A stretch of DNA of 64,000 bases, taken from Escherichia phage T2. The position numbers and the translations under genes were made by a program. Each line of letters opens with the position of its first letter. Position 1 is the stretch's first letter. This document shows, piece by piece, positions 10,552 through 53,872 of this stretch. Where the stretch lies: the sequence record NC_054931.1. One strand, 5' to 3'. The notes under the pieces are model-generated. The model saw only the letters and a program-made list of their open reading frames with translations, was not told where the DNA came from and did not search any database.

Positions 10552-11154
10552 TTATAGATTAAATCTTTCAAAATCAAGAGTATAGATAGTGTATGTTGAA
10601 CACTTTTTGTACTCATATCTATCTGCAATTCTAAATACACTTCCAGCTGGTATCATTACTTCTTGTTCATCTGAAACTAATTCCATATTACGATAACGAT
10701 GACTATCCGGAAACTTAAAGTTTGGATTGTATTCTTTACAGCGTAGAGCTTTTATAGCATACTCCTGGAAATTGAATACCATAGGAGCTTTGAATTCAAA
10801 AATAACTTGTGTGTTATACTCTAAACCGGAAGCAAAATGTAGAGCTATATTTTTATCATATGAAGCTGATACTACTTTATCAAATGTAATAATATCAATT
10901 CCTTGATTTAATAATTGTTTAGTCTCAACTGGAACACCTCTCCAAAGAGGTTTATCGTTTGGTTCCAAACGAGATTTGATTATTTCATTTAACCAAGTAT
11001 GGTCATCTGGTTTGTTGGTAATACAATGAATTAAAAGTTCAATTTCAGATAAATTAAACCCTTCAGAAAGTAATTCTTCACGAATAGAAGCACGCACCGA
11101 TGCATCCATTGATTTTATTTTAAAATCTTTTAGTTGCATTACTGAGTATTTCAT
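10552..11154 (-). CDS. modA: ModA-type mono-ADP-ribosyltransferase
   Basis: 200-aa ORF; R-S-E triad LWRG / SAS / EQE; length equals T4 ModA. Confidence 0.8.
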   Translation of the reverse strand: MKYSVMQLKDFKIKSMDASVRASIREELLSEGFNLSEIELLIHCITNKPDDHTWLNEIIKSRLEPNDKPLWRGVPVETKQLLNQGIDIITFDKVVSASYDKNIALHFASGLEYNTQVIFEFKAPMVFNFQEYAIKALRCKEYNPNFKFPDSHRYRNMELVSDEQEVMIPAGSVFRIADRYEYKKCSTYTIYTLDFERFNL

Positions 11155-11772
11155 TCAACTACCTCAATATCATAAACTTTAAGTGTTCCAAATGAATCGT
11201 GTAATTTTTCTTTTGAAATAGAAGTTATTCTATACTTTCCAATTGGAATCATCCATTCTTGTTCACGCACAATCATCATTAAGTTATCAGTACGCTCTGA
11301 ATCTAGCCCATCAGTATCTTCATACGTGTACTTAAACTCAGTATTAGGAGAAGAAAGTATAATATCGCATATGGTCAGAATAATTAAAAGCTTTATCAGT
11401 TTTTAAGCGAAATATTATTTCAGTGAAATACTCAACATAAGAAAAACCACATGCTGTGTGCAAACTGGTAGTAAATGAATCTACTCTGTTCGTTGAAAAC
11501 ACTTCTCCAACTTGTAAATCTTTAATAAGTTCTTTTGTTGATTTTGATATACCACGATATAACTGATAAGGTGATTTAGTTAAATGCTTTTTAATGATTT
11601 TATTCAATTGCCGATGAAGAGCTTCATTCTTTTTGGCTTCCATACATTGCCAAAGAACTGACTGTTCAAAGTCAGTAAATTTTTCACAAACCTTTTTATA
11701 CATATCATATTGAAAATCAACGCTTTCAGCTTTTATAGATAACTGTTCAACATCTGCAAGATTAATAATCAT
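11151..11772 (-). pseudogene. modB: ModB-like ADP-ribosyltransferase interrupted by a +1 frameshift
   Basis: N-terminal 142-aa ORF has LYRG and SFTTS; catalytic EQEWMIP lies in shifted frame ending in ATGA overlap with modA; span is 3n+1. Confidence 0.55.
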
Positions 11773-24988: not shown

Positions 24989-25076
24989 AGTTTTGTGAAA
25001 AAATTTTTAATGAATTCAAAGGGTCCAGAATCATCTGTTTTTCATAAGTATAGATTTATATTACTTGTATGAAAAG

Positions 25077-50708: not shown

Positions 50709-51677
50709 TTATTTCAGAAGAGTAACCTCAGCGATTTCTTCCCAACCGTTTTTGTCGGTCATAATAAAGTCAGCAAGATAAAGAGCAGTACGCAGTGAAA
50801 CATTGCGTAAACGGTTAACATTGACTTTCATCCATGATAATGCTTTATAAGTTTCTTCATCAGAAAGACCGCGCTTTTGCATCATGTCAGTTGAAAGAAT
50901 AACATCTTCAACCCTGACCATAATTTCTTCATTAGTGTGAACACCCAAATCCAAATAAACTGAGCGGGACACTAATGCTTGTAAATGTGGAGCAAGTTTA
51001 GTACCACGGTCTAATTCGCGGTCAATGTCAACGTTTGTGATAAAAACAATCGTTCCTTTAAATTCAAACTCACGCTCAATGCCTTTTTCTTCTAAGTAAG
51101 AAGATGCAGTGCTCCAGCAGACTTTACGGGTCTCTCCAGTGTCCAGAGCAGCTTTCAGAAGATTAAGAATATCCATATCAGAGAAAACATCCACATCATC
51201 AATCAAAAGGACAGAATTCTCTTCACGATTATTCCAGAGCTGTTCATAAAGACCGATACCAGAGATTTTACCGTTAATGCTTTTATATTCAATGTATCCA
51301 ATATCATTTGCTTTATTTAAAGCTTTATCTAAAGAATACGTTTTACCAATACCTGCTGCTCCCGAGATAATTAATGAACGAATGTTTCCGTTAATAATAC
51401 CATTCGTCATCATTCCCATAACATTAAATCTTTTATTAATGCGGGTTTTCATATCTTCATATGATTCTTTAACTTCTTCAACTTTTACACCATCATATGA
51501 AATGTCTGATTTGTAAACCCAAACACCGCGACGTTTACCGTCAATTTCAACAAAAACTTTACCATCTCCTTGTGCATCTACCGGAGCATTATCTGGGAAC
51601 CATTCACCTAAGAGCTCAAAAGTTCCAGAGATTTCTTTACCGAAGTAGATACCCTTATTGATAGTTACAGTTTTCAT
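50709..51677 (-). CDS. AAA+-type ATPase with about 95-aa N-terminal extension
   Basis: Walker A ISGAAGIGKT, Walker B VLLIDDVD, sensor-1-like FITN; ATG at 51677 with SD ggag. Confidence 0.5.
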   Translation of the reverse strand: MKTVTINKGIYFGKEISGTFELLGEWFPDNAPVDAQGDGKVFVEIDGKRRGVWVYKSDISYDGVKVEEVKESYEDMKTRINKRFNVMGMMTNGIINGNIRSLIISGAAGIGKTYSLDKALNKANDIGYIEYKSINGKISGIGLYEQLWNNREENSVLLIDDVDVFSDMDILNLLKAALDTGETRKVCWSTASSYLEEKGIEREFEFKGTIVFITNVDIDRELDRGTKLAPHLQALVSRSVYLDLGVHTNEEIMVRVEDVILSTDMMQKRGLSDEETYKALSWMKVNVNRLRNVSLRTALYLADFIMTDKNGWEEIAEVTLLK

Positions 51678-51711
51678 TTTATTCTCCAAATCCGTATCAG
51701 TTGATAGTTGT

Positions 51712-51741
51712 ATAGTACCATAAAGCTTTATGCTTGTAAAC
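51712..51741 (-). promoter_or_regulatory. T4-type early promoter in repeated cassette
   Basis: gtaaac 51736-51741 with UP-like element; conserved leader ggagaataaaatg. Confidence 0.55.
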
Positions 51742-51770
51742 CATTTTGTGAAAAATTTTTGAAATAAAAA

Positions 51771-51791
51771 AGGGGACCTCTAGGGCCCCCT
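51771..51791 (-). terminator. GC hairpin flanked by A and T runs (bidirectional terminator-like)
   Basis: aggggacc-tctag-ggccccct followed by ttt on plus and preceded by aaaaaa. Confidence 0.45.
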
Positions 51792-51799
51792 TTATGCTT

Positions 51800-52285
51800 T
51801 TATTCCATTTCTATTATATGCATGCTCTTTTTGCTATCAAAATATATGTTTTTAACTGTTAACTCCGAATTAATTGGCAATAAAAACTCTCTTTCATAAT
51901 CCACCATACAAAGATTATCATAAAGCTTATTAAGCTTATTATCATCAGTCTGGCTAGATTCTTCAATTGCGATTAAATTTTCTAAAATTTCAATCATAGC
52001 AGTTGAATAGTCAAAAACGTTTGCATTTTTTAACACTATTAAAACATTAGTCATATAGCGTTCTGCTGCAAATGTTTCAGCTATATGAGATTCACTACTA
52101 AAGGAAGTTATTCTTTTAAATTTGATTCTCCTATTAACTTCAAACTTATAAGATAGTACTTCCTCTATTGTAAGTCCTCTAAAAAGTACGTCTTTAATCT
52201 CAAGTTTGTCTTTAATGTAATCATTAACACGCTTATGATTAAAATCATTAATTTTGTTGCCAAGGCATTTCATTAAAATATGCAT
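51800..52285 (-). CDS. ModA/ModB-family mono-ADP-ribosyltransferase-like protein (third copy)
   Basis: R41 (VLFRG), SFSS at 66-68, E-R-E at 136-138; spacing R-to-S 25 residues as in ModA; aligns with ModA and ModB-like ORFs. Confidence 0.6.
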   Translation of the reverse strand: MHILMKCLGNKINDFNHKRVNDYIKDKLEIKDVLFRGLTIEEVLSYKFEVNRRIKFKRITSFSSESHIAETFAAERYMTNVLIVLKNANVFDYSTAMIEILENLIAIEESSQTDDNKLNKLYDNLCMVDYEREFLLPINSELTVKNIYFDSKKSMHIIEME

Positions 52286-52332
52286 TGTGTTTCTCTTCAA
52301 TTTTTAAAGAACAATTAATTAACTACAAATAT

Positions 52333-52362
52333 ATTATAATATGCTTTATGATAGAAGTAAAC
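52333..52362 (-). promoter_or_regulatory. T4-type early promoter for the ADP-ribosyltransferase-like gene
   Basis: attata 52333-52338, 18-bp spacer, gtaaac 52357-52362, UP-like aaaaatttttcacaaagttgtttac. Confidence 0.55.
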
Positions 52363-52392
52363 AACTTTGTGAAAAAATTTTTGAAATAAAAG

Positions 52393-52410
52393 GGGAGCCC
52401 GAAGGCTCCC
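52393..52410 (-). terminator. C(UUCG)G hairpin terminator
   Basis: gggagcc-cgaa-ggctccc perfect repeat; minus transcript has U-run after stem. Confidence 0.5.
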
Positions 52411-52412
52411 TA

Positions 52413-53426
52413 TCATTTATAATAACTTCGGTGGTTTTCAAGATAAACCTTCTCAAGGAAGTCATCCCAGAAACCCATGTCTACTTTTTGCTGCATACCG
52501 TTCTTAGAAGCTTCAGTAGATGCTGCTTCTACTTGATCGACCACATCTTCCAAAAACTCTTGAACCGTTTTAAATGGATGTTTACCCAACTTCACGTCGA
52601 GAATAAATGGAGCGTCTTGAAGTGGATAAACCAAGTCACCAGTTTTGTAAATTTCCAATAGTTGAAGTCCACCACGACAAGCATGGCTCAGAGCTTTCCA
52701 GTCAATGCCTTCGTTGGCTTCGGCCTTACGGGCACGTTCACCATATTCAGCATCTAATTTGTTCAGTGACTGCTTAAGCTCAATAAGAGAAAGCGTTGTC
52801 TGATATTTACGACCCAATACAGTGTAGAACGTTTGTGGGCCTGTTTTCTCATGATTATGGAACACCCATTCACAGAATTCGTTTTCTGGAAGACGATGCT
52901 TAATATCTTCAACTTTAGTACGACGCTGCTTAATAGAACCATCTTCTTGGTAATCAACCCATTGCTCGGGGATTTGATTAACTACTTTCAATACATCACG
53001 TAATGCAGCCAAACGAGAACCCTTGACACCGTATTTAGAAGCTTGCTTACGGACATATCCTAAATATGATTTCATGTTAGTCGTATAAAAACGAGAACGG
53101 TTGTCTTGAATAAACTTCCACACATCAGGCAAATCAGATTTAACCACTAGTTCAGGTTGAGTGTGAAGCATATCTAACGCTACAGTTTCACCATCTGCTG
53201 CTAATTTAAAGAAATATTTAAGACTGTATAGTTCATGGTCAATATCATCTTTAGTGTTTTTAGATGATGTGTTGTTAGTGTTTTTGCTCATGTGCTCTTT
53301 GACATTTCCGATAAGAATATCGCGAGCAGGAGGAACAAAAATTTCTTTAAAATCTACATCAGATTCTGGGGTAGAAGTTCCATAAAGATGACTACCAAAA
53401 TAGCTTTTCATTACTGTTTTCATCAT
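52413..53426 (-). CDS. Pol-beta superfamily nucleotidyltransferase
   Basis: 337-aa ORF; N-terminal GS-x9-SDVD motif (YFGSHLYGTSTPESDVDF) and downstream acidic DDIDHE. Confidence 0.55.
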   Translation of the reverse strand: MMKTVMKSYFGSHLYGTSTPESDVDFKEIFVPPARDILIGNVKEHMSKNTNNTSSKNTKDDIDHELYSLKYFFKLAADGETVALDMLHTQPELVVKSDLPDVWKFIQDNRSRFYTTNMKSYLGYVRKQASKYGVKGSRLAALRDVLKVVNQIPEQWVDYQEDGSIKQRRTKVEDIKHRLPENEFCEWVFHNHEKTGPQTFYTVLGRKYQTTLSLIELKQSLNKLDAEYGERARKAEANEGIDWKALSHACRGGLQLLEIYKTGDLVYPLQDAPFILDVKLGKHPFKTVQEFLEDVVDQVEAASTEASKNGMQQKVDMGFWDDFLEKVYLENHRSYYK

Positions 53427-53872
53427 TCAGCCTTATATTCAATAACAGGACATACTTTAGCTTTACGAACTTTTAAAAATTCAACGATAATCGATTTCTT
53501 AGGTTGAATAGGAGGTAAACCTTTATACGCCCTATCAATATTTTCTACGTGTAAAGCATAATCCTTTTTCCATTTATAATCTTTATATTTTTCACGCAAA
53601 TGTGCAGGAATAACAAATGAACCGATAATAAGTAAAACAACCAAAAGCGCAAGTATAAATGCCGATGGAAGAAGAGTCCATAAACTACCGAAAATAAGCC
53701 AACGTTGTAGGCTTTCTGCACAAATAATTGTTAGCCCTACGAGTATAGCACACCCAAAAATAGAAACGAAAAATGTAGGAGGCAATAGACCAAAAATATG
53801 CGCATAGTGTCTTAGGTCGTTGCCATTCATCGTTAAACAGTTTGAATAATTTATAGTGCCAAGAGTTTTCAT
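53423..53872 (-). CDS. membrane protein (2 predicted TM helices) translationally coupled to the nucleotidyltransferase
   Basis: 149-aa ORF; hydrophobic stretches IFGLLPPTFFVSIFGCAILVGLTIICA and LIFGSLWTLLPSAFILALLVVLLIIGSFVI; 4-nt overlap with NTase start. Confidence 0.5.
   Translation of the reverse strand: MKTLGTINYSNCLTMNGNDLRHYAHIFGLLPPTFFVSIFGCAILVGLTIICAESLQRWLIFGSLWTLLPSAFILALLVVLLIIGSFVIPAHLREKYKDYKWKKDYALHVENIDRAYKGLPPIQPKKSIIVEFLKVRKAKVCPVIEYKAE

Follow-up and report, generated by a model that had tools for sequence, protein, structure and literature searches.

What is the small modA- and modB-like gene that Escherichia phage T2 carries between nrdC.11 and nrdC.10, and how did it come to lie there? 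We address this question in a 64,000-nucleotide stretch of the T2 genome (NC_054931.1), referred to throughout as the window. ADP-ribosylation by Alt, ModA and ModB is a textbook case of a phage chemically reprogramming its host, and ModB has recently been noted for attaching RNA to protein. The gene considered here, designated modX, is an open reading frame (ORF) of 161 residues on the minus strand, with its ATG at 52285 and its stop codon at 51802-51800, a frame that the GenBank records also annotate. We consider it likely that this ORF represents a third lineage of Mod ADP-ribosyltransferases of the R-S-ExE type, carried between nrdC.11 and nrdC.10 on a module of about 620 bp that holds promoter, leader, gene and terminator and belongs to the promoter-early stem-loop (PeSL) type.

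51800-52285, minus strand: coding sequence modX, putative Mod-family ADP-ribosyltransferase, 161 residues, with R36-G37, S61-F-S63 and E131-R-E133.

A preliminary description of this DNA, made from the letters alone, had read in the ORF an R-S-E triad (VLFRG, SFSS, E-R-E) with the spacing of ModA and had aligned it with ModA and with a ModB-like ORF. Both the similarity searches and the alignment with ModA and ModB bear this out, with matches of the ADP-ribosyltransferase (ART) fold and the R, S and E positions kept. BLASTP comparisons with the 161-residue protein give E-values far beyond chance for T4 ModB (4e-13; 27% identity over 146 aligned positions), T2 ModA (2e-11; 28% identity over 162 aligned positions) and T4 ModA (2e-10), and PHROG 832, ‘RNA polymerase ADP-ribosylase’, matches it at 1.8e-23. 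A profile built from the T2 protein and three close homologs was searched exhaustively against 1.84 billion representative proteins with a cut-off of E ≤ 1e-3. Only 31 matches were returned, nearly all of them Mod-like proteins of about 150-260 residues, the weakest matches including one repeat protein and a few short fragments. The search recovered both the ModB representative (P0011, 1.1e-11) and a ModA-like protein (P0024, 2.1e-6).

The motifs of the family can be recognized at the expected places. The catalytic arginine lies in an aromatic-R-G strand (VLFRG, R36), and the motif that binds nicotinamide adenine dinucleotide (NAD), S-x-S/T, reads TSFSS (S61/S63), position 63 being S or T in 30 of the 31 sequences. 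The E-x-E motif, comprising the catalytic glutamate and the glutamate that specifies arginine, reads YEREF (E131/E133). R36, G37, S61, E131 and E133 are the only invariant columns of the 31-sequence alignment, and they align with R73, G74, S99, E171 and E173 of ModB and with R72, G73, S96, E163 and E165 of ModA. The distances from R to S and from S to E are 25 and 72 residues in the T2 protein, compared with 24 and 69 in ModA and 26 and 74 in ModB. In ModB, the R73A substitution abolishes transferase activity, and the ExE form of the motif is described as characteristic of arginine-specific transferases (PMC10468400).

An AlphaFold2 model built on the family alignment (predicted local distance difference test score, pLDDT, 93.8; predicted template-modelling score, pTM, 0.86) has the ART fold. 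Among the PDB structures, 90 matched this model at E ≤ 1e-3, and the first 50 listed are all R-S-E ADP-ribosylating toxins or close relatives (probability 1.00), including C3, HopU1, Tre1, XopAI, iota Ia, ExoS, Certhrax, VIP2 and Vis. Among predicted viral structures (BFVD), the best matches after the protein’s own ortholog are Mod proteins, with template-modelling (TM) scores of 0.77-0.88. A sequence search of PDB chains, a set that holds no Mod structure, gave a chance match only (METTL21A, E 0.58). Scans of the ORF with Pfam and NCBIfam returned no match; ModA and ModB themselves score nothing in the Pfam copy used, which lacks PF26816, and the empty Pfam scan is therefore no evidence against the Mod assignment. 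Precomputed matches to that model, PF26816 (Mod_ADP_RT), include P0001, P0002 and P0003, which are 94%, 61% and 54% identical to the T2 protein, as well as P0005. Sequence, profile, invariant residues and predicted fold together support the assignment of the T2 protein as a Mod-family R-S-ExE ADP-ribosyltransferase.

Judged by its sequence, the gene belongs to this family without being an ortholog of modA or modB. In a neighbour-joining tree, the T2 protein and P0001-P0003 form a clade of their own, apart from the ModA and ModB clades. The sister clade consists of P0005-P0009, proteins of 175-189 residues; the gene for P0005 occupies the canonical soc-to-dda mod locus in a T4-like phage that is more distantly related. 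The T2 protein is 27-28% identical to ModA and ModB, and these two are 25% identical to each other, the distances being about equal. The gene lies about 40 kb from modA and modB (10552-11772) and not at the soc-mrh-modB-modA-srd-dda locus, as the preliminary description had recognized in calling it a third paralog of the ModA/ModB family distant from the mod locus. Existing labels for the gene include ‘RNA polymerase ADP-ribosylase’ (PV958097, NC_019399), ‘ModA’ (SV76), ‘modB_2’ (UFV-AREG1) and hypothetical, and UniProt K4FJU3 already names the product ADP-ribosylase. Given the position outside the mod locus and the separate clade, the GenBank labels ‘ModA’ and ‘ModB’ are thus family-level names and do not denote orthology. 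Since the T2 protein is equally distant from ModA and ModB, a target different from theirs, as the preliminary description suggested, is plausible.

The state of modB in T2 bears on what the additional gene may do. The ORF at 11344-11772 (minus strand, 142 residues), which the preliminary description had called ModB-like, is modB carrying a 2-nt deletion relative to T4. The deletion lies between 11369 and 11368 (ATATCAGCGAT to ATAT--GCGAT) and leaves the ExE segment (REQEW) in another frame. In a tblastn search of the window with the modX ORF, only the ORF itself rose above noise, and a weak match of 17 residues at 11288-11238 (E 0.24) corresponds to this out-of-frame segment. Five of the six T2-lineage records have the deletion. 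The sixth, MH751506, from T2 grown on E. coli B, is 2 nt longer in modB and has the T4-length region of 624 bp, as does every non-T2 match listed, including that of phage ACG-C40. Either laboratory T2 stocks truly differ in this respect, or the records share a sequencing error. Inactivation of T4 ModB has been reported to reduce burst size 4- to 12-fold (PMC10468400), and a T2 stock that combines a broken modB with an extra Mod paralog deserves a direct look. The idea that the cassette generally replaces a lost modB was considered and is ruled out by ACG-C40, in which the cassette and a full-length modB region occur together.

A related explanation is that modX is a redundant copy with the targets of ModA (RNA polymerase alpha R265) or ModB (S1, EF-Tu, trigger factor), serving dosage or standing in for a damaged paralog, for instance the frameshifted modB of T2. 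We regard this as doubtful. The shared family and catalytic motif would suit such a role, as would early timing of the kind reported for modA and modB (PMC10468400) and the modB frameshift upstream of ExE in the window and in those five T2-lineage records. However, the protein is only as similar to either paralog as ModA and ModB are to each other, and the targets of those two differ; the full-length modB region of ACG-C40 also indicates that a phage need not have lost modB to carry the cassette.

Another possibility raised by the kinship with ModB is RNAylation, in which the enzyme would prefer NAD-capped RNA and attach RNA chains to host proteins. Among the T4 transferases, ModB alone performs RNAylation efficiently (PMC10468400), and the profile of the T2 protein scores slightly better against the ModB representative (1.1e-11) than against the ModA-like protein (2.1e-6). 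Yet the T2 protein falls outside the ModB clade, carries a net charge of -4 and presents no obvious RNA-binding surface, which makes this activity rather improbable. Sequence cannot decide the matter, because the determinants of RNAylation are not known (PMC10468400).

The DNA around the gene has the layout of a cassette. Reading along the minus strand, the end of nrdC.11 is followed by a hairpin with a T run, the core TTTTATTTCAAAAATTTTTTCACAAA, GTTTAC with the promoter, a leader of about 40 nt containing GAAGAG, and the ORF. The ORF is followed by a hairpin with a T run, the same A/T-rich core, TTTACA-N17-TACTAT and nrdC.10. Around the coding sequence, the elements are as follows.

52393-52410, minus strand: upstream GC-rich stem-loop GGGAGCCTTCGGGCTCCC followed by a T run, 7 pairs, -16.3 kcal/mol, z -3.0 against shuffles.
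52357-52392, minus strand: A/T-rich UP-like core TTTTATTTCAAAAATTTTTTCACAAAGTT and GTTTAC, the upstream copy of the flanking direct repeat (52357-52410 against 51736-51789).
52333-52361, minus strand: putative early sigma-70-type promoter TTTACT-N17-TATAAT, 10 of 12 consensus matches, conserved in Manna, L007 and L009.
52293-52298, minus strand: Shine-Dalgarno-like GAAGAG, 7 nt 5' of the ATG, read from the sequence; SV76 annotates a ribosome-binding site just upstream of the start codon.
51769-51793, minus strand: downstream GC-rich stem-loop AAAGGGGGCCCTAGAGGTCCCCTTT followed by a T run, 10 pairs, the putative terminator of the cassette itself, -16.4 kcal/mol, z -2.0 against shuffles.
51736-51768, minus strand: downstream copy of the A/T-rich core and GTTTAC in the direct repeat, the likely recombination joint into the resident PeSL.
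51712-51740, minus strand: putative resident early promoter TTTACA-N17-TACTAT for nrdC.10, outside the inserted DNA and identical to the T4 promoter at the site.

The preliminary description had placed the ORF between two GC hairpins and given it its own early promoter with a UP-like element, and both features are found: each hairpin runs into a T run, and the promoter at 52361-52333 has the A/T-rich core upstream and is conserved in relatives. The upstream stem-loop is the putative intrinsic terminator of the nrdC.11 transcript and at the same time the stem-loop of the upstream PeSL, and T4 has the identical sequence as the only hairpin of its nrdC.11-nrdC.10 spacer. An Rfam scan of 51400-52700 gave nothing near gathering scores, and the cassette hairpins are probably plain terminators of no known RNA family. 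Transcription of the cassette would start near 52326. Relative to this position, GTTTAC lies at -36..-31 and an A-rich stretch at -40..-44, the arrangement published as the T4 early-promoter signature (PMC1524935). Both flanking promoters also fit TTTACW-N17-TAYWAT, the published consensus of T4/PST PeSL promoters (PMC4122927).

Two readings of the frame at this locus were considered and set aside. An alternative TTG start at 52300 would extend the protein to 166 residues; the orthologs start at the ATG, P0003 starts at the aligned position, and GAAGAG precedes the ATG. A 33-residue ORF at 52315-52416 (minus strand; ‘hypothetical protein’ in PV958097) sits wholly over the terminator hairpin and promoter of the cassette and is most likely an annotation artefact. 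Elsewhere in the window, at 24992-25015 (minus strand) and about 50 nt downstream, there is an early promoter with a near-identical A/T-rich core and GTTTAC. It shares its -10 element and the leader GGTACTATACAACTATCAAC with the nrdC.10 promoter and is a dispersed copy of the same regulatory module.

Comparison with T4 clarifies how the gene may have entered this site. In T4, the nrdC.11-nrdC.10 spacer is 114 bp long and holds no gene and one terminator-promoter module, whereas T2 has two copies of the module core flanking the gene. When the two are aligned, the T4 spacer follows the upstream T2 module through its left half, then changes over within the shared core and continues as the right half of the downstream module. 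T2 and T4 differ here by a segment of 621 bp flanked by copies of the terminator/UP/-35 motif, which form a direct repeat spaced 621 bp apart. The same two-module layout is found in ACG-C40, Manna, HY01 and BW-1. Recombination between PeSL motifs is described, in the part of that literature covered here, as the cause of insertions, deletions and replacements of modules in the hyperplastic regions of T4-type genomes (PMC2839356). Neither the T2 module nor its cargo was found in the covered parts of the two PeSL papers (PMC4122927; PMC2839356).

Homologs at other sites indicate that the parts travel together. P0002 (61% identical) lies between regA and the DNA polymerase gene 43, and P0003 (54% identical) lies downstream of an nrdC.11 homolog and two small ORFs. 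Both loci keep GTGTAC-N18-TACTAT, the leader (CTCTTTAA.AA) and a GC hairpin directly after the stop codon. Because these divergent homologs retain all parts at other sites, promoter, leader, gene and terminator can be taken to move as a unit. The view of the locus as a self-contained promoter/terminator cassette, put forward in the preliminary description, is strengthened by these homologs and by the duplication of the module core around the T2 gene. A gain by T2 is favoured over a loss from T4 by the low frequency of the gene and by the homologs at other sites, as far as sequence can tell. In ACG-C40 (L004, NC_019399), a second module with a 49-residue ORF and a DUF4031-domain gene (1648-2057) follows a PeSL core copy between the Mod cassette and nrdC.10. 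With this second module stacked in it, the nrdC.10/nrdC.11 spacer is thus a reusable insertion hot spot.

Both neighbouring genes are on the minus strand according to the SV76 annotation. nrdC.11 (52413-53426) encodes an RlaP-type nucleotidyltransferase and nrdC.10 (50709-51677) an AAA-type ATPase. Over the 1-kb stretch around the cassette, identity is 100% to six records of the T2 lineage in GenBank, SV76 and five named T2, so that the window is T2 DNA and not T4. Immediately upstream of nrdC.11, T2 has an ORF of 149 residues (53423-53872, minus strand) where T4 has the HNH homing endonuclease gene mobD. Its counterparts in BW-1 and HY01 are annotated as a signal-peptide or membrane protein (compared with L005, 2530-3309). 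The presence of this ORF in place of mobD is a further case, within this hyperplastic region, of a gene replaced between T2 and T4.

An ortholog with at least 90% identity is present in 42 of 50,697 phage records, all from Tequatrovirus, and the next-best matches in these records, at most 31% identical, are the resident ModA and ModB genes. The Mod-like gene is accessory, occurring in roughly 8% of relatives. Carriers have been recorded on E. coli K-12, B and O157, Salmonella, Citrobacter and E. fergusonii. In BW-1 (L010, OR125554), a 1-nt frameshift after residue 86 divides the ortholog at 1403-1887, for which the annotation gives two ‘RNA polymerase ADP-ribosylase’ coding sequences; the 65-residue cluster P0004 is probably the same kind of fragment.

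The patchy distribution invites an explanation in which the enzyme would disable, by ADP-ribosylation, a host immunity or toxin protein found only in some strains. An accessory gene in about 8% of relatives, lying on a mobile module in a hyperplastic region, would suit such an anti-defence role. By analogy, T4 Alt reportedly acts against MazF and Mokosh type I, and the same screen flagged a ModA ortholog (bioRxiv 10.1101/2025.11.20.689424). The carriers, however, come from many hosts in no obvious pattern, and the literature speaks for this role by analogy alone; we therefore hold it to be unlikely.

Several observations weigh against the view of modX as an active third Mod enzyme on a promoter-bearing module gained by T2. 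The flanking genes are matched in 531 records and the ortholog in 42, so that more than 90% of relatives lack the gene, and the frameshifted copy in BW-1 implies that it is dispensable. The junctions alone leave both directions, insertion in T2 or deletion in T4. The protein lacks the N-terminal segment of about 37 residues present in ModA and ModB, which could matter for folding or target binding. Between T2 and ACG-C40 (L004, 2182-2667), about 7.5 nonsynonymous and 0.5 synonymous changes are counted, a nominal ratio of nonsynonymous to synonymous rates (dN/dS) of 3.4 that rests on small numbers; these changes may reflect lineage-specific relaxed or diversifying selection. A regional promoter scan found 21 sites compared with 12.7 +/- 3.0 in shuffles, not clearly above chance, and support for the cassette promoter comes instead from the conservation of the site in orthologous and divergent cassettes. 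Finally, the literature yielded no biochemical or expression data for the T2 protein.

The short length, the missing N-terminal segment, the split copy in BW-1, the many relatives without the gene and the nonsynonymous excess relative to ACG-C40 could also be taken as signs of a decaying or catalytically dead remnant, or of a binding protein without enzymatic function, carried along by a mobile PeSL module. This seems very improbable. Homologs as distant as 54% identity retain all five family-invariant residues, deeper comparisons give a dN/dS of about 0.15 (0.14-0.19 against the HY01 and Manna orthologs), indicative of purifying selection, and the structural model is confident and compact.

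We thus return to a third Mod lineage on a PeSL-type module. Building on the family membership, the conserved catalytic residues, the predicted fold, the purifying selection and the cassette anatomy and junctions described above, the following sequence of events can be proposed. Transcripts of nrdC.11 would stop at the upstream hairpin, and host sigma-70 RNA polymerase would start at the T4-early-type promoter of the cassette right after infection. The 161-residue enzyme may then bind NAD+ through R36 and S61-x-S63 and use E131-x-E133 to move ADP-ribose onto one or more arginines of host proteins. Transcription would end at the hairpin of the cassette, with nrdC.10 being restarted from the resident promoter. 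The gene itself would contribute to fitness as an accessory factor that recombination between PeSL cores adds or removes. More tentatively, the enzyme may have its own host target, for example a defence or toxin protein of certain strains, or a part of the transcription or translation machinery untouched by Alt, ModA and ModB, and may be spreading between T4-type phages as a PeSL plug-in module for host modification. In most sequenced T2 stocks, in which modB is frameshifted, it may even be the only working partner of Alt and ModA.

What is added here should be seen against what is already known. Homology labels for the gene, a Pfam family model and the PeSL type of cassette are all published, and the novelty implied in the preliminary description was overstated; what is new is an uncharacterised third Mod lineage on a known kind of mobile module. 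A literature search for a third Mod paralog (ModC, ModA-like, PF26816, ACG-C40, nrdC.10/11, T2 ADP-ribosyltransferase) found no description. The gain is modest, because neither the family nor its chemistry nor the type of cassette is new, and homology labels for the gene exist already. Nevertheless, a third and equally divergent Mod lineage in a classic laboratory phage provides a ready comparison for target choice and RNAylation ability, and the gene is easy to delete, with natural empty-site relatives such as T4 at hand. The locus also shows cleanly how an enzyme gene can move from site to site and from phage to phage together with a promoter and a terminator of its own.

Among known systems, the closest include the two resident Mod enzymes, which Tiemann et al. 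reportedly found in 2004 to be toxic on expression. ModA of T4 and T2 (200 residues, RNA polymerase alpha ADP-ribosyltransferase) shares the R-S-ExE layout and spacing with the T2 protein, and its BFVD model matches at a TM score of 0.77. It differs in reading VSAS where the T2 protein reads TSFSS, in its extra N-terminal segment, and in being near-universal at the mod locus, whereas the T2 gene is accessory. T4 ModB (207 residues, NAD-protein ADP-ribosyltransferase and RNAylating enzyme) is likewise a small, single-domain member of the same family, and it is expressed early. In contrast, the helical insert before ExE differs between the two proteins, the ‘P..EF’ motif is missing from the T2 protein, and locus and clade are separate.

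The nearest proteins outside the clade are P0005-P0009, single Mod proteins of distant T4-like phages at the soc-to-dda locus, which are also compact and match at profile E-values of 1e-17 to 1e-23 with 26-31% identity. They differ from the T2 gene in occupying the canonical mod locus, as shown for P0005, and not a PeSL module in the nrdC region. Bacterial toxins such as C3 exoenzyme, HopU1, Tre1 and the iota/VIP2 type share the R-S-E ART fold with the predicted structure (Foldseek probability 1.00, E about 1e-5, TM score 0.45-0.59). At 8-16% identity they are remote, and they are larger, with delivery or adaptor domains; C3 exoenzyme, moreover, has QxE, directed to asparagine, in place of ExE.

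For the module, the counterpart is the PeSL cassette of T4-type phages. The text of the 2014 paper on these cassettes (PMC4122927) contains neither ‘nrdC’ nor ‘ribosyl’. The likeness lies in a stem-loop terminator followed by a strong sigma-70-like early promoter, an arrangement predicted on both flanks of the T2 gene. As in the covered parts of the published descriptions (Arbiol 2010, PMC2839356; Comeau 2014, PMC4122927), the location is a hyperplastic region, the flanked gene is present or absent between close relatives, and the breakpoints fall inside the motif.

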